A stretch of DNA of 60,516 bases. Origin: Gemmatimonadota bacterium (GTDB lineage: Bacteria; Gemmatimonadota; Gemmatimonadetes; Gemmatimonadales; GWC2-71-9). Shown here in pieces: positions 32,051 to 38,747 of this stretch. Numbering within the stretch: position 1 is the first letter of the stretch; every line of letters starts with the position of its first letter. The notes below the pieces were generated by a model that made no database searches, was not told the DNA's origin, and was given only the letters and a program-made list of their open reading frames with translations. Both the position numbers and the translations under genes were made by a program. Where the stretch lies: contig JBGPPG010000005.1 of the NCBI GenBank assembly GCA_041488455.1, forward strand, positions 1 through 60,516. The letters run 5' to 3'.

Positions 32051-32392
32051 TCAGCGCACATCCACCGTGTCGATCACCGGGGACGTCTGGATAGTGTGCT
32101 CGAAGGTGATGATCGCGCGCCCCGGCGCGACAGCCAGGAAGTGAAACAACTGGGTTTCGCCGGCGGGGACCGCCGGAGTGACCAGCTCGACGCTGCGGAA
32201 CCGAACCGCGCCGGAGGAGATCGTCGGTGGCGCCCGGTACTCGCCGGGGCCGATGTTCTGGAGCCGGAGGTCGAGTCCCTGCCCGAGGACGACCGAAAAC
32301 GTGCGGCCTGGAATAGCGCTGACACCGGTGGGCGTATCGCCGCACCCCGCGAGCAGCAGCACTGCCGCGGCCAGGGCGCCGGCGGTCGGCAA
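32051..32392 (-). CDS. lipoprotein, hypothetical
   Basis: 113 aa. LLAGC lipobox. Confidence 0.55.
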   Translation of the reverse strand: MPTAGALAAAVLLLAGCGDTPTGVSAIPGRTFSVVLGQGLDLRLQNIGPGEYRAPPTISSGAVRFRSVELVTPAVPAGETQLFHFLAVAPGRAIITFEHTIQTSPVIDTVDVR

Positions 32393-33136
32393 TCAGACCG
32401 CCCGGACGAGCCCGCCGTCCACGAGCAGGCTCGCCCCAGTGACGTAGCTCGCGTCGCTCGACACGAGGAAGGCGGCGGCGCGGGCCACCTCATCCGCCGT
32501 CCCCGGGCGGCCCGCCGGAATTCTGGCCATGGCTTCCGCATCCACCGGGTACGTGTCGATCCATCCGGGCAGAAGATTGTTCATCCTGAGTCCGCGGCCG
32601 GCATACTGCTGGCTGTACAGCTTCGCGAAATTGCCGAGGGCCGACCGGAGCGTCGCCGAGACCGGGTGGCGGAGTCCCGGCTCCACGGCCGCGAAGCTGG
32701 AGATGTTGACGAATGCGCCACCGCCCCCGGCCAGCATCAATGGCGTGGCGAGCCGCGCCATGCGGACCACGCTCAGGAGCAGAAGATCGATCCCCTCCTG
32801 CCACTCCGCGTCGGTGAGGCTCAGGAGATCGCCCTTGGGGGCGTGCCCCGTGTTGTTGATCACCGCGTCCAACCGTCCGAACCGCGACCGCGCCGTCTCG
32901 ATCACGCGGGCCAGATCGTCGGCTACGGCGACCGATCCGCGGACGGGCATGCCGCCGAGCTCCGCTGCGAGCGCTTCAACGTCGGCCGACCGCGCCATCA
33001 GGATGAGACGGAAGCCGCGGCGGCCCAGCTCGCGGGCGCAGGCGGCACCCATTCCGCGGCTGGCCGCAGTCACGACCGCTACCGGACCATCGCGAGCGGA
33101 CGCGGCGGCGGTCAGGCGGCGGCCCCGCGCTCGCAA
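32393..33136 (-). CDS. SDR family oxidoreductase
   Basis: 247 aa, TTG start. VVTAASRGMG, NNTG and C-terminal YVTGASLLVDGG. Confidence 0.8.
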   Translation of the reverse strand: MRARGRRLTAAASARDGPVAVVTAASRGMGAACARELGRRGFRLILMARSADVEALAAELGGMPVRGSVAVADDLARVIETARSRFGRLDAVINNTGHAPKGDLLSLTDAEWQEGIDLLLLSVVRMARLATPLMLAGGGGAFVNISSFAAVEPGLRHPVSATLRSALGNFAKLYSQQYAGRGLRMNNLLPGWIDTYPVDAEAMARIPAGRPGTADEVARAAAFLVSSDASYVTGASLLVDGGLVRAV

Positions 33137-33318
33137 TACGCCGTCACCGAGTCCATGTGTCCCTCGAGCGCCTTGATGGCACGCGCGCGGCGATGCTTCT
33201 CGAAACGACCCAGCGGGACACGTTGCCTCCCGGTCACGGTTGAGCTGAGCCTTCGACGGTGAAAGTATCCGGACTCCACCGCCGCGCCAGGGTCGGTCAA
33301 GATGCGGGCATGCTCCAC
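33112..33318 (-). CDS. small hypothetical ORF (weak)
   Basis: 68 aa, third-position GC about 76 percent, no recognisable family. It fills an otherwise empty gap. Confidence 0.3.
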   Translation of the reverse strand: MEHARILTDPGAAVESGYFHRRRLSSTVTGRQRVPLGRFEKHRRARAIKALEGHMDSVTAYCERGAAA

Positions 33319-33569
33319 ATCTCGCGGACCTCGCTCTCGCCCCCGCGCACCACCGAGAGGAAGCGCTTCGTCAGCTCGATCGCTTCTGCTTTCGACTTCG
33401 CCTCGAGGATCGCGTAGCCGCCGACCAGCTCCTTCGTCTCGGCGTCGATCAGGATGCCGGCCTTGGTCATCTCCTCGATCAGCCGGCCCATGTCGGCCAT
33501 CTCCCGCTCGTTGGGCGGCGGGCCCCCATCTGCGCCCGGCTTGTACAGCGTCAGGAAGCGCATGGTCAT
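33297..33569 (-). CDS. YciI/DGPF-like protein, shortened paralog (internal in-frame deletion)
   Basis: 90 aa. Aligns with the next paralog at both ends, but ...KAGILID joins directly to AETKELVGGY. About 27 residues including the DGPF motif are missing. Confidence 0.6.
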   Translation of the reverse strand: MTMRFLTLYKPGADGGPPPNEREMADMGRLIEEMTKAGILIDAETKELVGGYAILEAKSKAEAIELTKRFLSVVRGGESEVREMWSMPAS

Positions 33570-33997
33570 TTCCCCCGTTTGGCGGCCACCTGCGCGCGCA
33601 TCCGCTCCTCCGCCTCCCGGAGCTCGGGCGTGAACCCCTCCCCGAGATCCTCCGCCTCGAACACCTGGCGGATCTCGATCTCGGAATCCCCGGCCAGCGG
33701 ATTGGGGCAGCGCTTGATCAACTCGATCACCTCTTCCTTGGACTTGGCCTGAAGCAGCCAGAAGCCCGCGATCAGCTCCTTGGTTTCCGCGAAGGGCCCG
33801 TCGATGACGGTCCGCTTCGTGCCGGAGAACTTGACGCGCGCGCCCTTCGAGCTCGGCTGGAGCCCCTCGGCGCCGAGCAGCATGCCGGCCCTCATCAGCT
33901 CTTCGTTGAACTTCCCCATCTCGGTCAGCAGCTCCTCGCTCGGGAGGACGCCTGCCTCGGTGTCCTTGTCGGCCTTCACCATGGCCACGAATCGCAT
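33566..33997 (-). CDS. YciI-like DGPF domain protein
   Basis: 143 aa from ATG 33997 (AAGGAGA 7 nt upstream). VIDGPFAETKELIAGFWLLQAKS motif. Confidence 0.8.
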   Translation of the reverse strand: MRFVAMVKADKDTEAGVLPSEELLTEMGKFNEELMRAGMLLGAEGLQPSSKGARVKFSGTKRTVIDGPFAETKELIAGFWLLQAKSKEEVIELIKRCPNPLAGDSEIEIRQVFEAEDLGEGFTPELREAEERMRAQVAAKRGK

Positions 33998-34075
33998 GGG
34001 ATCGTCTCCTTCAGGCATCGGGTTCGGAGCCGGCCGCCGGGTGATCCCCGCGGCTGGCCTTGGCTCTACACAATT

Positions 34076-34102
34076 GTCGAATGAGGGGCGGTGAAATCGA
34101 CA
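34076..34102 (-). promoter_or_regulatory. ECF-type promoter candidate TGTCGATTT-N14-CGAC upstream of the DGPF gene
   Basis: Coding-strand sequence TGTCGATTTCACCGCCCCTCATTCGAC. It has the same architecture and the same 9-mer as the site at 35985-36011. Confidence 0.55.
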
Positions 34103-34115
34103 GGCGGGCGAACCT

Positions 34116-34475
34116 TCACTTCTCCGGGGGCATCCCCGGGATGTCTATGACGGGGCGGACCTCGATGGTCCCCCGGCGTGCGATGGGGATCTGCGCCGCG
34201 ATAGCGATCGCCTCATCCAGGTCCCCGGCCTCAATGAGGAAATAGCCACCCAGCTGCTCGTGCGTCTCCGCAAACGGACCGTCGGTCACGAGTCGCTTGC
34301 CGCCCCGGACCCGGACGCTCGTCGCCGTCGCTGTAAGATGCAGCGGAGCGGCGGCGAGATATCGGCCGGCCTGCTCCAGCTGGTGCGCGAGCTGCGTGGA
34401 CTCCTGGTAGCATTGCTCCCGCTCGGCCTCGTCCAGGACCTGCTCGTCCAGGTAGATCAGCAGCATGTATCGCAC
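34116..34475 (-). CDS. YciI family (DGPF) protein
   Basis: 119 aa. MRYMLLIY...VTDGPFAETHEQLGGYFLIEA...IEVRPV. Confidence 0.85.
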   Translation of the reverse strand: MRYMLLIYLDEQVLDEAEREQCYQESTQLAHQLEQAGRYLAAAPLHLTATATSVRVRGGKRLVTDGPFAETHEQLGGYFLIEAGDLDEAIAIAAQIPIARRGTIEVRPVIDIPGMPPEK

Positions 34476-34499
34476 GCGTGTGCCTCCATTCCAGTCCGG

Positions 34500-34796
34500 C
34501 TAGCCGCCGGCCATGGCCCCCACGACGAGGAAGGGCTCGGCCCCCGTCTCCACCGCGCCGGGCAACGGCGCATCCGGCGGCTCATGGGACAGATCCTGCC
34601 CGCAGGCGAAGAACCTCACGAACGGCCTGCGCCTGAGGGTGCCATGGTCGCGGATCGTCCCGCGCAGCACCGGAAATGCGGCTTCCATGGCGTCGAGGAC
34701 CGTGCGCTGCGTCACCGGACCCTCGACCTGGAGCTGCACCTCGCCCTCGAGGTGCGCCAGCCTCCGCAGATGCTCGGGCAGCACCACGCGGATCAT
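34500..34796 (-). CDS. MoaD/ThiS-like beta-grasp protein ending in Gly-Gly
   Basis: 98 aa. Pattern [14 protein letters not shown]...; C-terminus ...VVGAMAGG*. Start overlaps the upstream stop (ATGA). Confidence 0.7.
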
Positions 34797-35914
34797 GACA
34801 GCGTCTGGACCTCGACGGAAAGGACGGCCGGAAAGTCGCGGACGATGGGGGCCCAGGTGTCACCGGCGTCGGCCGTCGCGTACACCTGCCCGCCGGTGGT
34901 ACCGAAGTAGAGGCCGCAGGAGTCGAGCGAATCCACGGCCATCGCGTCGCGCAGCACGTTCACGTAGCAGTCGCGTTGCGGCAGCCCGTGGGTGAGCGGC
35001 TCCCACTCGTCACCGCCCGACCGGCTGCGGTACACGCGCAGCTTGCCCTCGGGCGGGTAGTGCTCCGAGTCGCTCTTGATCGGGACGACGTAGATGGTGT
35101 CCGGCTCGTGCGCGTGCACCGCGATCGGGAAGCCGAAGTCGGTCGGGAGGTTCCCGCTCACCTCGCGCCACGACTCGCCGGCGTTGTCGCTGCGCATGAC
35201 ATCCCAGTGCTTCTGCATGAACAGCACGCCCGGGCGCGACGGGTGCATCGCGATGCGGTGGACGCAGTGACCGACCTCCGCGGTCGGGTCGGGCAGCTCG
35301 TGCGGGGACTTGAGGCCCCGGTTCGCCGGCCGCCACGTCTTGCCGGCGTCGTCAGTTCGGAACACGCCCGCGGCCGAGATGGCGACGAAGATCCGCTTCG
35401 GGTCGCGCGGGTCCAGCACGATCGTGTGCAAACCCATCCCGCCAGCGCCTGGCTGCCAGAGGTGTCCCTTCGCGGCCCGCAGCCCGGGAAGCTCCTCCCA
35501 CGTCTGCCCCCCGTCCACCGAGCGAAAGAGCGCTGCGTCCTCCACCCCCGCATAGACGGTATCGGGATCCGTGAGCGATGGCTCGAGATGCCAGACGCGC
35601 TTGAACTCCCAGGGGTGCTGGGTGCCGTCGTACCACTGGTGGGTGCCGGGGACCCCGTCGTACGCGAACTTATTGCCGACCGGCTCCCAGGTCTTGCCCC
35701 CGTCGTTGGAGCGCTGGATCAGCTGGCCGAACCAGCCGCTGGTCTGCGACGCGTACAACCGGTCGGGGTCCGCGGGCGAGCCCTGGAGGTGGTAGATCTC
35801 CCACCCCGCGAAGTGGGGGCCACTGATGTCCCACCGCTTGCGCTTCGCGTCCGCCGTCAGGACGAACGCCCCCTTGCGGGTGCCAACCAGCAACCGTACT
35901 CGGCTCATCCCCAT
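34793..35914 (-). CDS. BNR/Asp-box repeat beta-propeller protein (sialidase-fold, function unknown)
   Basis: 373 aa. Repeated SxDxGxTW boxes ([45 protein letters not shown]). Confidence 0.8.
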
Positions 35915-35984
35915 CTCCTTCCTCTAGTTCCGGCCCTTCTTCCCGACTCGATGCCGGGCTCCCGAACGGCTGTTATGAGAGGTA

Positions 35985-36011
35985 GTCGTTCGGCGGCGCT
36001 TCAAATCGACA
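35985..36011 (-). promoter_or_regulatory. ECF-type promoter candidate TGTCGATTT-N14-CGAC upstream of the BNR gene
   Basis: Coding-strand sequence TGTCGATTTGAAGCGCCGCCGAACGAC, about 70 nt upstream of ATG 35914. Confidence 0.55.
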
Positions 36012-36020
36012 ACGGTCCTG

Positions 36021-36039
36021 CGGGGCCCGGAAGGCCCCG
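36021..36039 (-). terminator. GC-rich hairpin just downstream of the sigma factor stop
   Basis: CGGGGCC / GGCCCCG 7-bp stem with a 5-nt loop, 10 nt after the stop at 36049. No U-tract, so terminator function is uncertain. Confidence 0.35.
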
Positions 36040-36048
36040 TCGGCGGCG

Positions 36049-37311
36049 TCAGGCCGACAGGTCGCGCAACCGGCGCTCGAGAAACCGCCGCTCCGGCTCC
36101 TGGCGCGTGAGAGAGAGCGCCCGTTGGTAGGAGACCCGGGCGTCCGCCGTCCTTCCCAGTCGCCGGCACAGCTCCGCCCGCGCCGAGTGCGCCAGGTAGT
36201 AGTCAGCCAGATCGCCGCGGTCGAGGATGGCGTCGATGAGGGCGAGGCCAGCCGCCGGACCGTCGCGCATCGCGACCGCCACGGCGCGATTCAATTCGAC
36301 TACGGGCGAAGGACTCGTGAGCGCCAGTACATCGTACAGCCCGACGATGCGGGCCCAGTCCGTCGCGGCCGGGTTGGGTGCCTGAGCGTGCACCGCGGCA
36401 ATGGCCGCCTGGGCGGCGTACGGGCCGAGCCGGCCCGACGACAGGGCGTCTTCCACCAGCGCGGATCCCTCCGCGATCTGATCCCGGTTCCAGAGGGAGC
36501 GGTCCTGGTCGTCCAGGAGGATCAGGTCGCCCGTCGGCGACGCACGCGCCGCGCGCCGCGATTCGTGCAGCAGCATCAGCGCCAGGAGCCCGGCCGCCTC
36601 GGGCTCGGGCAGCAGCTCGACGAGCAGCCGCCCCAGGCGGATGGCCTCACCCGAGAGATCGGCCCGCGTGAGCGACGCGCCCGCCGATGCCGAGTAGCCC
36701 TCGTTGAACACCAGGTAGATCACCTGGAGGACCGTGTCCAACCGTTCCGGCAGGTCGGTCCGCGACGGCACCTGGTAAGGGATGCCCGCGTTGCGGATCT
36801 TTGACTTGGCCCGCACGATCCGCTGCGCGACCGTAGCGGGAGCGGTAAGGAAAGCGCGCGCGATCTCCTCGGTCGTGAGCCCGCACACCTCCCGGAGCGT
36901 CAGCGCGACCCGGGCCTCCGGTGGAAGGGCGGGATGGCAGCAGGTGAAAATCAGCCGAAGGTCGTCGTCGGGGACGTCCTCGTACTCCCATCTGGCGGTG
37001 GCCCGGGTGTCGGCGTCGAGCTGGTCGGCGAGCGTCGTCGCCGCGGCGTCGAACCGGGTGCGGCGGCGCAGGGTGTCGATGGCCTTGAAGCGACCGGCCG
37101 ACACGAGCCACGCCCGGGGATTGGCGGGGACGCTGTCCCGCGGCCACTGCTCCAGCGCCGAGGTGAAGGCATCCTGGAGCGCCTCTTCGGCGAGGTCGAT
37201 ATCGCCAAGCAGGCGGATCAGGGTGGCGAGGACGCGGCGCGACTCGGAGCGGTAGACCGCTTCTACCTTCTCGCGAAACCGCTCGGCCTCAGTCCCGCTC
37301 GTGGTATCCAT
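36049..37311 (-). CDS. ECF sigma factor with long C-terminal extension (ECF42-type)
   Basis: 420 aa. N-terminal sigma2/sigma4 regions (VLATLIRLLGDIDLAEEALQDAF; REVCGLTTEEIARAF) plus a helical-repeat tail of about 230 aa. DGPF genes are adjacent. Confidence 0.8.
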   Translation of the reverse strand: MDTTSGTEAERFREKVEAVYRSESRRVLATLIRLLGDIDLAEEALQDAFTSALEQWPRDSVPANPRAWLVSAGRFKAIDTLRRRTRFDAAATTLADQLDADTRATARWEYEDVPDDDLRLIFTCCHPALPPEARVALTLREVCGLTTEEIARAFLTAPATVAQRIVRAKSKIRNAGIPYQVPSRTDLPERLDTVLQVIYLVFNEGYSASAGASLTRADLSGEAIRLGRLLVELLPEPEAAGLLALMLLHESRRAARASPTGDLILLDDQDRSLWNRDQIAEGSALVEDALSSGRLGPYAAQAAIAAVHAQAPNPAATDWARIVGLYDVLALTSPSPVVELNRAVAVAMRDGPAAGLALIDAILDRGDLADYYLAHSARAELCRRLGRTADARVSYQRALSLTRQEPERRFLERRLRDLSA

Positions 37312-37325
37312 CGAGCCGATGAACG

Positions 37326-37487
37326 CTACTCGACCGGCGGGCCGCCCTCGGAAGTGGGCTGTTCGGGCAGCTCTGCCTCGGCGGAGGCTTTGGCCCGGTC
37401 CAGCTTGCGCTGGGCTTTCTCTTCCTTCTTGCGCTGCTTCGTCAGTTCCTTCTGACGCTTCTCGAATCCGTAGTTACGCTTCGGCAA
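37326..37487 (-). CDS. small Lys/Glu-rich protein (53 aa), below ORF-track cutoff
   Basis: TTG 37487 with GGAG 8 nt upstream. Translation (M)PKRNYGFEKRQKELTKQRKKEEKAQRKLDRAKASAEAELPEQPTSEGGPPVE*. Stop at 37326-28, 14 nt upstream of the sigma start. Confidence 0.6.
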   Translation of the reverse strand: MPKRNYGFEKRQKELTKQRKKEEKAQRKLDRAKASAEAELPEQPTSEGGPPVE

Positions 37488-37618
37488 AAGAGACGCTCCG
37501 CAGTGAGGGCTGGTGATGTGGAGGAGCCAAGCGGCGCCCCAGGGGGTAGCGACGCAGCCGTGGCAAGATAGCTCGCCGGAGGCGGCTGCGCGTTCAGGAG
37601 TCCCGTGCTCGCGTAGCG

Positions 37619-38086
37619 CTACGGCTTCGGCGCTTGCTGCTGAGGATCGTCAGCCGGATTCACATAGGTCATCGCAAAGGGGCCCATCGCGCTCACGGCG
37701 ACGATGGTTGCGCCCTTCGCGGCGGCGAAGTGGTGCGCGTTGGCCGGCACCAACCCCTTGTCGCCAACTTTCATGGGCTTCGTCTGCGCGGCGTCGAACT
37801 TGTCGCCCATGCCGACCAGAAACGTGCCCTGCTTTACCTCGACGCTCTCATCGGTGGGATGAAAGTGTGGCGGGATCTTGTAGCCGGAAGGCATGGACAG
37901 CTCGATGCTGAACGGCGCGGCCTTTCCGGGATCACCGCTCACCACCGCCATCTTGGCGCCCTTCGGGAAGACAGCGGGTGCGGGACCCCAGTGGAGTGCA
38001 GCCGGTTTGGCCGCGGGGCCCGCCTGAGCCTGGACCACGGAGGCGCCCAGGAGCAGGAAGTACGGAAGAGTGGCGAGGGACCGCAT
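37619..38086 (-). CDS. secreted cupin domain protein
   Basis: 155 aa from ATG 38086 (GGAGG 5 nt upstream). Signal peptide; YKIPPHFHPTDESVEVKQG cupin motif. Confidence 0.75.
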   Translation of the reverse strand: MRSLATLPYFLLLGASVVQAQAGPAAKPAALHWGPAPAVFPKGAKMAVVSGDPGKAAPFSIELSMPSGYKIPPHFHPTDESVEVKQGTFLVGMGDKFDAAQTKPMKVGDKGLVPANAHHFAAAKGATIVAVSAMGPFAMTYVNPADDPQQQAPKP

Positions 38087-38219
38087 GGAACCTCCGAGCG
38101 GTGGGAGTGGTGGGCTAAGGCGAGCCCGGGCGTCCGCCCGGCGACCCCGCAAAGCTGCCGGCCGGAGCACGCGGAGGCAAGACTGACGCGAGCCGTGCAG
38201 CCTGGGCCTGGAGCCTGTC

Positions 38220-38747
38220 TCAGCGAGGCGGTGCCCCGGGAGGAGCCGCGGGCCGAAGGTCGGTCCGCCGAGTGCAGGGGAGCGCCGCTTCGGCCCCCCA
38301 CGTGATCGTCCCGCTGTCCTCCCACTTGTACGAGCGCCGGACCGACGCGCAGGCGCCGTCGGCGCTCTCGTAGTGGAAACGTGCGCCGAGGGTGTCCGAA
38401 GCCAGAGTATCGTCGCGCGGAATGATGTCCACGAGCCAGGCGACCGCTCGGGCGCGGGGGTAGAGGTGTCGCGTTCCCACGGCGAGACTGTCTTCCCACT
38501 CCTGGGGTGGTGCGGTGAGGGCGGGCCACTTCTCCGGCGTGAAGCCCCACTGCTTCCCGGCTGTGTCCACGTAGGCGCCCACGGCGTAGAACGTCTCGCC
38601 GGACCGCTCGAGAAACGCCTTGGCCTGATCCATCAGGGCGGCATAGAGCACCGGTTGGTCCCGATGGGCGGGGCTCTGAGCCGGGGCCCGGGCTGGTGCA
38701 AGCCCTGCGAGAAGGCCGAGCAGGCGGACGGTCGTCCCTGAGCGCAT
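38220..38747 (-). CDS. secreted protein, hypothetical
   Basis: 175 aa. Signal peptide ending APAQS; non-repetitive sequence. Confidence 0.55.
   Translation of the reverse strand: MRSGTTVRLLGLLAGLAPARAPAQSPAHRDQPVLYAALMDQAKAFLERSGETFYAVGAYVDTAGKQWGFTPEKWPALTAPPQEWEDSLAVGTRHLYPRARAVAWLVDIIPRDDTLASDTLGARFHYESADGACASVRRSYKWEDSGTITWGAEAALPCTRRTDLRPAAPPGAPPR

Follow-up and report, generated by a model that had tools for sequence, protein, structure and literature searches.

Two probable ECF42-type promoters downstream of an ECF sigma factor gene in an uncultured Gemmatimonadota bacterium

We analysed a 60,516-nucleotide stretch of DNA from a Gemmatimonadota bacterium (the window; positions 1 to 60,516 of contig JBGPPG010000005.1, assembly GCA_041488455.1). 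The minus strand of the window carries a gene for a sigma factor of the extracytoplasmic function (ECF) class and then, in this order and on the same strand, two units of genes that we call the P1 unit and the P2 unit. Judged by its placement in the sequence, a short motif that occurs twice appears to stand at the heads of both transcription units in this cluster beside the sigma gene. An earlier note on this DNA had proposed that the two copies are ECF-type promoters resembling those of the ECF42 group.

The sigma gene (36049..37311, minus strand) encodes a protein of 420 amino acids that is of ECF42 type by its Pfam content. Sigma70_r2 matches residues 20-86, Sigma70_r4_2 residues 121-172 and DUF6596 residues 190-289 (E = 1e-37); a match of TPR_2 to residues 373-402 (E = 6e-5) is under the Pfam gathering score. 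Regions 1 and 3 of sigma factors had no match in the Pfam scan of the protein, which exceeds the cut-off of the NCBIfam sigma70-ECF superfamily. Past region 4 there is a C-terminal extension of about 240 amino acids (residues 176-420) that contains DUF6596 and the TPR. We thus find the architecture of an ECF42 sigma, with a core of regions 2 and 4, a TPR-containing extension and adjoining YCII (DGPF) genes; the 2.8 kb downstream of the sigma gene hold three YCII genes, two of them with the DGPF motif. Neither a second sigma homologue nor further YCII genes were detectable in the window by tblastn. The neighbours of the sigma gene are a Lys/Glu-rich open reading frame (ORF) of 53 amino acids without a Pfam match, a cupin-like gene and a BNR gene, none of which resembles an anti-sigma factor.

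The BNR gene is the first gene of the P1 unit (34793..35908, minus strand). It encodes a BNR/Asp-box beta-propeller protein of 371 amino acids (Pfam BNR and Sortilin-Vps10) that matches PDB entry 3b7f, 'Glycosyl hydrolase, BNR repeat', with E = 1e-69, and whose N-terminus has no signal peptide apparent by eye. An alternative start at 35914 gives 373 amino acids; the start at 35908 is the one used in six gene-called syntenic relatives. The second gene (34500..34796, minus strand) starts within the BNR stop, with an overlap of 4 nt (ATGA), and encodes a small MoaD/ThiS-like protein of 98 amino acids with a Gly-Gly end. It has no Pfam or PDB sequence match and is named after homologues that are 80-92% identical and are called 'MoaD/ThiS family protein' or 'molybdopterin synthase sulfur carrier subunit' (NCBI, JGI). 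There are at least 8000 homologues of this small protein in the database, the best 120 listed being 79-100% identical. The overlapping BNR and MoaD-like pair is kept in five of 80 related loci (described below), and a distant BNR homologue is present in a sixth. The third gene (34116..34475, minus strand; Pfam YCII, E = 7e-24) begins 24 nt past the MoaD-like gene and encodes a YCII protein of 119 amino acids with the DGPF motif (LVTDGPFAE).

The first gene of the P2 unit (33566..33997, minus strand; Pfam YCII, E = 2.5e-16) encodes a second YCII protein with the DGPF motif (VIDGPFAE; 143 amino acids), and has a Shine-Dalgarno-like GAAGGAG 8 nt upstream of its ATG at 33997. The earlier note had singled this out as the DGPF gene. 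A DGPF gene does start there, but it is not the sole one in the cluster, the gene at 34475-34116 being also a YCII gene with the motif. The start of the second gene of the unit (33297..33569, minus strand) overlaps the stop of the first. Its product is a truncated YCII paralogue of 90 amino acids with a Pfam match to the C-terminal half of YCII only; alignment with the orthologue from a related locus (L082; the L-numbers are our labels for individual loci) revealed an in-frame internal deletion of 27 residues that removes the DGPF segment, the protein being 117 amino acids long in L082-L087. It may be a decaying paralogue. A short-chain dehydrogenase gene follows after a gap of ~160 nt. Coverage in four soil metatranscriptomes was 10-100x deeper for BNR homologues and for homologues of the first P2 gene (33566-33997) than for sigma homologues.

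Read on the minus strand of the window, the first motif copy is TGTCGATTTGAAGCGCCGCCGAACGAC (36011-35985) and the second is TGTCGATTTCACCGCCCCTCATTCGAC (34102-34076). Both contain an identical 9-mer, TGTCGATTT, and have a gap of 17 nt between TGTCGA and CGAC. The positions, strand, shared 9-mer and spacing given in the earlier note are therefore as read from the sequence, and its remark that the 9-mer was not seen elsewhere also holds: an exact search of the 60.5 kb window returned these two places only. The mean count of the 9-mer in shuffled sequence was 0.16, and 1 of 100 shuffles reached two. The composite pattern TGTCGA-N17-CGAC matched three times in the window vs 0.30 expected, a count reached by 0 of 100 shuffles; the third match is site 2 read on the plus strand, this site being partly palindromic (TGTCGA...TCGACA). 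Both sites are intergenic. Site 1 begins 37 nt past the sigma stop codon, and from the last C of its CGAC (35985) there are 70 nt to the ATG at 35914 or 76 nt to that at 35908. Site 2 begins 13 nt past the stop codon of the first YCII gene, and from the last C of its CGAC (34076) there are 78 nt to the ATG at 33997. The earlier estimates of about 70 nt for the BNR gene and about 80 nt for the gene at 33997 were close to these measured values. We found no larger repeat around the two sites and no similarity between their flanks, so the copies are not part of a segmental duplication. With a weight matrix built from other loci only, the window sites being excluded, site 1 scored 34.3 bits and site 2 scored 32.3 bits, compared with 10.8 bits for the best unrelated site in the 60.5 kb.

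To compare the motif across genomes, we used 80 loci with sigma homologues from species-representative genomes, which had been retrieved by the sigma protein and encode proteins 64-78% identical to it over ~410 amino acids. At least eight phyla are represented; the loci are labelled as Gemmatimonadota, Acidobacteriota, Planctomycetota, Verrucomicrobiota, Nitrospirota, Chloroflexota, Cyanobacteria, Bacteroidota and Alpha-, Beta- and Gammaproteobacteria, the last including many Pseudomonas. With a plain regular expression, the motif was already visible in nearly every locus. An alignment of 81 sites with TGTCGA, a 17-nt gap and CG(A/T)C, in which the remaining positions were free to vary, gave the extended consensus TGTCGAWTT-N9-CCR-WW-CGACTA. 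Beyond the fixed bases, there is a T-rich run past the -35, CC(G/A) 2 nt before the -10, A or T twice before CGAC, and TA after it. We then scanned with a two-block matrix that allowed a spacing of 16-18 nt at a threshold of >=18 bits: 73 of the 80 loci had at least one site, and of the 104 matches 94 were on the sigma strand and 10 on the opposite strand. Dinucleotide shuffles gave 2.45 matches at >=18 bits and 0.1 at >=25 bits, vs 105 and 86 observed. Two tests were free of circularity, namely the outside-trained matrix applied to the window and a strict pattern derived from the window sites (TGTCGAWWT-N14-CGACWA) applied to the loci. The latter had 35 exact matches in 33 of the 80 loci, all 35 on the sigma strand, for an estimated chance expectation of <0.01.

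Wherever an annotation or a gene call existed, the motif was found between genes. Matches of >=25 bits fell within ~150 nt downstream of the sigma gene in 30 loci, like in the window; in 24 loci they were 400-1430 nt upstream of it on the same strand, at an operon that starts with a YCII or SnoaL gene and runs into the sigma gene. Taking the 104 matches with the two in the window, 60 of the 106, with P2 among them, precede YCII/DGPF genes and three precede BNR genes. These three are the window and two related loci, L001 and L021, where the BNR homologues are 80 and 76% identical, respectively, and are also directly preceded by the motif. Nine representative genes among the other downstream genes were scanned and gave Glyoxalase/VOC, 3-dmu-9_3-mt, RibD_C, AHSA1/SRPBCC and SnoaL_3; the 40 downstream ORFs counted as 'unclassified' are an overstatement, since the longest-ORF heuristic chose wrong frames in several GC-rich loci (e.g. 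L004, L005 and L016). YCII homologues occur in 69-71 of the 80 loci. The motif, its specificity, its conservation, its orientation and position, and the gene families downstream of it are thus direct observations.

Conservation across phyla is confined to the two promoter blocks (-35 and -10) and the ribosome-binding site, with AT-rich and GC-rich flanks alike. Among closer relatives, six gene-called metagenome contigs (L082-L087) have the gene order of the window, a sigma 89% identical and both sites at the same positions; in P1 of these contigs the -35 and the -10 are intact, and ~8 of the 14 bases between the 9-mer and CGAC differ. In a more distant setting, a RefSeq-annotated plasmid of P. 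aeruginosa with a sigma 70% identical has three motif copies, all intergenic and pointing with the genes, in the gaps from sigma to YciI, from YciI to an NTF2-family protein and from VOC to glyoxalase. We also observed that a subset of the Acidobacteriota (e.g. L019, L030, L031, L035, L057, L059 and L069) has a gap of 16 nt, not 17, with a near-identical site, TGTCGATTTTCCGTCTCCCCAACGACTAT, across distinct genomes; on this sequence evidence, the 16-nt spacing appears to be clade-specific.

The identity of the sigma proteins themselves across phyla is unusually high for an ECF sigma. The closest matches include Gemmatimonadales, and copies ~70% identical are present on plasmids of P. aeruginosa and Acinetobacter, including an IMP plasmid. 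These sequence comparisons suggest strong constraint, horizontal transfer, or both, and they go a little beyond what is described for this sigma subgroup in the literature that we consulted.

In terms of promoter parts, P1 (35982..36013, minus strand) has the -35 element TGTCGATTT at 36011-36003, a CCG in the spacer at 35993-35991 and the -10 element CGACTA at 35988-35983. It scored 37.0 bits with the two-block matrix and is a perfect fit to the extended consensus (CCG-AA-CGACTA). P2 (34073..34104, minus strand) has the same -35 element at 34102-34094 and the -10 element CGACAA at 34079-34074, and scored 33.3 bits. Transcription is predicted to start at about 35976 (A) from P1 and at about 34067 (A) from P2, ~9 nt past CGAC, because this is where the last base is printed in the promoter table for RpoE10 of Sinorhizobium meliloti, if that base is the mapped start as the layout suggests. 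A purine is found at the ninth nucleotide past CGAC, the position that equals the last printed base of the S. meliloti promoters, in 61 of the 81 aligned sites. From the predicted starts, the 5' untranslated regions would be about 68-70 nt. Scans of the minus strand from 32300 to 38300 called neither sigma-70-type promoters nor terminators; the whole window had no match to an Rfam RNA family; and folding of the predicted 5' untranslated regions and of the spacer between sigma and P1 gave no standout structure (z-scores of -0.6 to -1.6). There is a GC-rich hairpin with an 8-bp stem, CGGGGCCUUCCGGGCCCCG (36019-36037, minus strand), between the sigma stop codon and P1; its z-score is -1.6, and no run of U follows immediately. 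Because the hairpin has these properties and was not called by the terminator scan, transcripts of the sigma gene may continue into the BNR operon.

ECF sigma factors generally read the -35 element with region 4 and the -10 element with region 2. We consider it highly probable that both motifs act as promoters for RNA polymerase carrying the ECF42-type sigma encoded at 37311-36049. Region 4 of this sigma would bind the -35 TGTCGATTT and region 2 would bind the -10 CGAC(T/A)A. P1 would drive the BNR, MoaD/ThiS-like and YCII genes, P2 would drive the YCII and truncated YCII genes, and the two units together would form a small local regulon directly downstream of its regulator. After published work on ECF42, we would expect no anti-sigma factor here, and the activity of the sigma would rely on the extension with the TPR at its own C-terminus. 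We infer the reading of the motif by this sigma, the transcription starts and the activating signal. Both sites read TGTCGA-N17-CGAC, in keeping with the ECF42-type form TGTCG(A/G), 16-18 nt, CG(A/T)C, and are intergenic and co-directional with the gene that starts 70-78 nt further on; across genomes, the motif co-occurs with the sigma. The earlier proposal of ECF-type promoters resembling the ECF42 motif gains support from the architecture of the sigma, from conservation in 73 of the 80 loci and from the promoter architecture of S. meliloti RpoE10.

In Streptomyces, studies of ECF42 sigmas have reportedly given TGTCGA as the -35 and CGA/TC as the -10. Among the closest described counterparts of the window is S. 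meliloti RpoE10, an ECF42 sigma. Its overexpression switches on SMc01149-SMc01148, immediately behind rpoE10, as well as SMb20475-SMb20474, which encode glyoxalase-like and hydrophobic-ligand-binding proteins, but not its own operon; the mapped promoters read TGTCGG-N17-CGTC (PMC6180224). The two systems are alike in their -35 with TGTCG and a purine, their 17-nt gap and their CG(A/T)C -10, and also in having small cytoplasmic targets, one operon directly downstream of the sigma, a YCII gene adjacent, a tiny local regulon and no autoregulation seen. They differ in that the elements are TGTCGG and CGTC in S. meliloti and TGTCGA and CGAC(T/A)A in the window, and in that BNR and MoaD/ThiS-like proteins are not among the S. 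meliloti targets. Moreover, the S. meliloti YCII gene is upstream of the sigma and is not induced, whereas the YCII genes of the window are downstream and carry a promoter.

More generally, ECF42 sigmas are described as regulators that act locally, with small regulons and conserved synteny (PMC7776599). The group is one of the largest among the ECF sigmas, with >10,000 members (bioRxiv version of Casas-Pastor et al.), and the C-terminal extension is described as essential for activity (PMC8999054; bioRxiv version of Casas-Pastor et al.). The ECF42 sigmas of Streptomyces venezuelae (SVEN_0747, SVEN_4377 and SVEN_7131; Liu et al. 2018 and Wu et al. 2019, cited in PMC8999054) resemble the window sigma in having regions 2 and 4 and a TPR extension of ~200 amino acids, and in having DGPF/YCII genes as conserved neighbours and targets; they have no anti-sigma factor, and none is recognisable beside the window sigma gene. 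They differ in belonging to another phylum, and the target set of the window includes BNR and a MoaD-like protein. For the Pseudomonas lineage, the comparison is with P. putida ECF-10, an ECF42 sigma (cited in PMC8999054 and PMC6180224): Pseudomonas sigmas of the same architecture are 66-71% identical to the window sigma, and we infer that the genes in our Pseudomonas loci are ECF-10 orthologues. In these loci the same motif is found upstream of a SnoaL-like gene. Unlike in the window, the motif there precedes the sigma gene by 0.9-1.4 kb on its strand and stands at the head of an operon to which the sigma gene probably belongs, an arrangement that would give autoregulation. The neighbouring ECF41 group, represented by S. 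meliloti RpoE9, has the promoter TGTCACA-N16-CGTC (PMC6180224). It shares the TGTC-type -35, the CGTC-type -10, a local one-operon regulon and a sigma with a C-terminal extension, but has a SnoaL-like extension in place of TPR/DUF6596, TGTCACA as its -35 and one base less between the elements.

This last similarity bears on the question of which sigma reads the motif. The sites could be ECF promoters served by another ECF sigma from some other part of the genome, e.g. an ECF41-like one, with the adjacent sigma being irrelevant or one of several; the ECF41 and ECF42 motifs are similar, as the RpoE9 promoter illustrates, and our view is limited to 60.5 kb of the genome. However, the motif accompanies the orthologue of this very sigma in 73 of 80 loci, in many phyla and on plasmids, and usually lies <150 nt from the sigma stop codon or heads a sigma-containing operon, whilst the tblastn search gave no second sigma homologue in the window. 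We regard a different sigma as very unlikely. That the repeat arose by chance, or is a functionless remnant of a duplicated segment, has a negligible probability in our view. The part shared exactly by the two copies is just 9 nt plus 4 nt, and one in 100 shuffles did give two 9-mers; yet the count of the composite pattern was never reached in shuffles, no similarity surrounds the sites, and the same composite motif is found at the homologous position in dozens of unrelated genomes.

The sites could also be read not as promoters at all but as operators of a dimeric transcription factor, repressing or activating, that binds GTCGA-N15-TCGAC. Site 2 does read TGTCGA on both strands, reverse-complementing GTCGA gives the consensus -10 variant (T)TCGAC, and sites in L010, L032 and L074 also score on both strands. 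Against this, the conserved flanks are asymmetric, with TTT past the left half, CCR-WW before the right half and TA after it, and the reverse readings of the two window sites scored 10.5 and 15.0 bits with the outside-trained matrix, vs 34.3 and 32.3 bits forward. The asymmetry is oriented towards the gene that follows: all 35 strict matches, and 94 of the 104 from the matrix, are co-directional with the sigma gene. In addition, no other candidate DNA-binding regulator co-occurs with the motif, and site 1 is not palindromic (ACGACT). We therefore judge a dimer operator to be less probable still than a different sigma.

The assignment of the two sites as promoters of the adjacent ECF42-type sigma has points against it as well. 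The partial dyad of the motif core, GTCGA...TCGAC, is also compatible with a dimeric DNA-binding protein. The membership of the sigma in ECF42 rests on its architecture, the gene context and the promoter, not on the group's classification models. P2 fits the extended consensus only in part (TCA-TT-CGACAA), with TCA for CCR and CGACAA for CGACTA, and in L082-L087 the -35 of P2 reads CGTCGA. The shuffle control is partly circular, the matrix having been trained on the same loci. All runs of the sediment metagenome behind the window are of DNA, and contigs from the four soil metatranscriptomes align to the coding parts of diverged homologues only and stop at the start codon. Finally, the Litorilinea-type BNR/MoaD clusters (L088-L090) lack any motif of >=15 bits and any sigma gene within 4 kb, so that control of the BNR operon by the sigma is not universal. 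Nor is there a motif upstream of the other BNR genes in L015, L078 and L018; in these loci and in L088-L090, the BNR gene either lies deep within a long run of co-directional genes or is not under this control. In L088-L090, the BNR/MoaD-like pair is inside a co-directional array of Glyoxalase, GyrI-like, 3-dmu-9_3-mt, ABM, RibD_C, SnoaL and AHSA1 genes, families that are largely the same as those found behind the ECF42 motif elsewhere.

The spacer of the motif contains a further conserved element. CC(G/A), 2 nt upstream of CGAC (motif positions 18-20), carries 0.82-0.87 bits per position in the 81 sites and is as strongly conserved as the T-run past the -35, AT-rich genomes included. It is present in P1 (CCG, 35991-35993) and absent in P2 (TCA). 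A speculative and rather unlikely extension of our reading is that these are three-part promoters in which CCR is contacted by the DUF6596/TPR extension of the sigma, and that the BNR and MoaD/ThiS-like genes are an unreported output of the ECF42/DGPF system. If so, the contact with CCR would explain why ECF42 sigmas, unlike ECF41 sigmas, need the extension for activity, and the BNR/MoaD-like output would link the ECF42/DGPF system to ubiquitin-like or sulfur-carrier chemistry.

Promoters of this kind are a known type of local gene switch, and to a specialist the finding is an expected one. Two aspects are modestly new relative to the literature consulted: the BNR/MoaD-like operon as a target with the motif directly in front (three loci, for BNR), and the conserved CCR spacer element together with the CGACTA form of the -10. 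Here the sequence by itself suffices to assign two transcription units of an uncultured sediment bacterium to a specific regulator, and the BNR/MoaD-like operon is a further entry among the few genes apparently under the control of ECF42 sigmas. The extended consensus, which holds in Gemmatimonadota, Acidobacteriota, Planctomycetota, Cyanobacteria and Pseudomonas and on plasmids, is a practical tool for the prediction of ECF42 regulons in metagenomes.

The sigma gene itself has no copy of the motif upstream of it in the window, where the best matrix score between 37290 and 37700 was 1.5 bits; the earlier observation that autoregulation is not evident therefore holds here. Because its gene is without such a promoter, the window sigma would not be positively autoregulated via this motif. 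Roughly a third of the related loci (~24) do have the motif upstream of sigma, and because it heads a sigma-containing operon in these, autoregulation is probably lineage-specific.

The segment just before the start of the sigma gene varies among relatives (window 37312-37618 compared with L082 912-1481), and is flanked by cupin-like and carbonic anhydrase genes that are syntenic with the relatives. In L082-type relatives, the segment encodes a bPH_2 membrane protein of 189 amino acids that ends 18 nt before the sigma start; in the window it is ~300 nt long and contains a small ORF only. This unannotated ORF (37326-37487, minus strand) has a TTG start with a GGAG 7 nt upstream, encodes the Lys/Glu-rich 53-amino acid protein mentioned above (MPKRNYGFEKRQKEL...), for which there was no Pfam match, and ends 14 nt before the sigma start codon. 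A homologue (41% identical) is found 1.3 kb downstream of the sigma gene in L007, so that the linkage of the small ORF to sigma is inconsistent.

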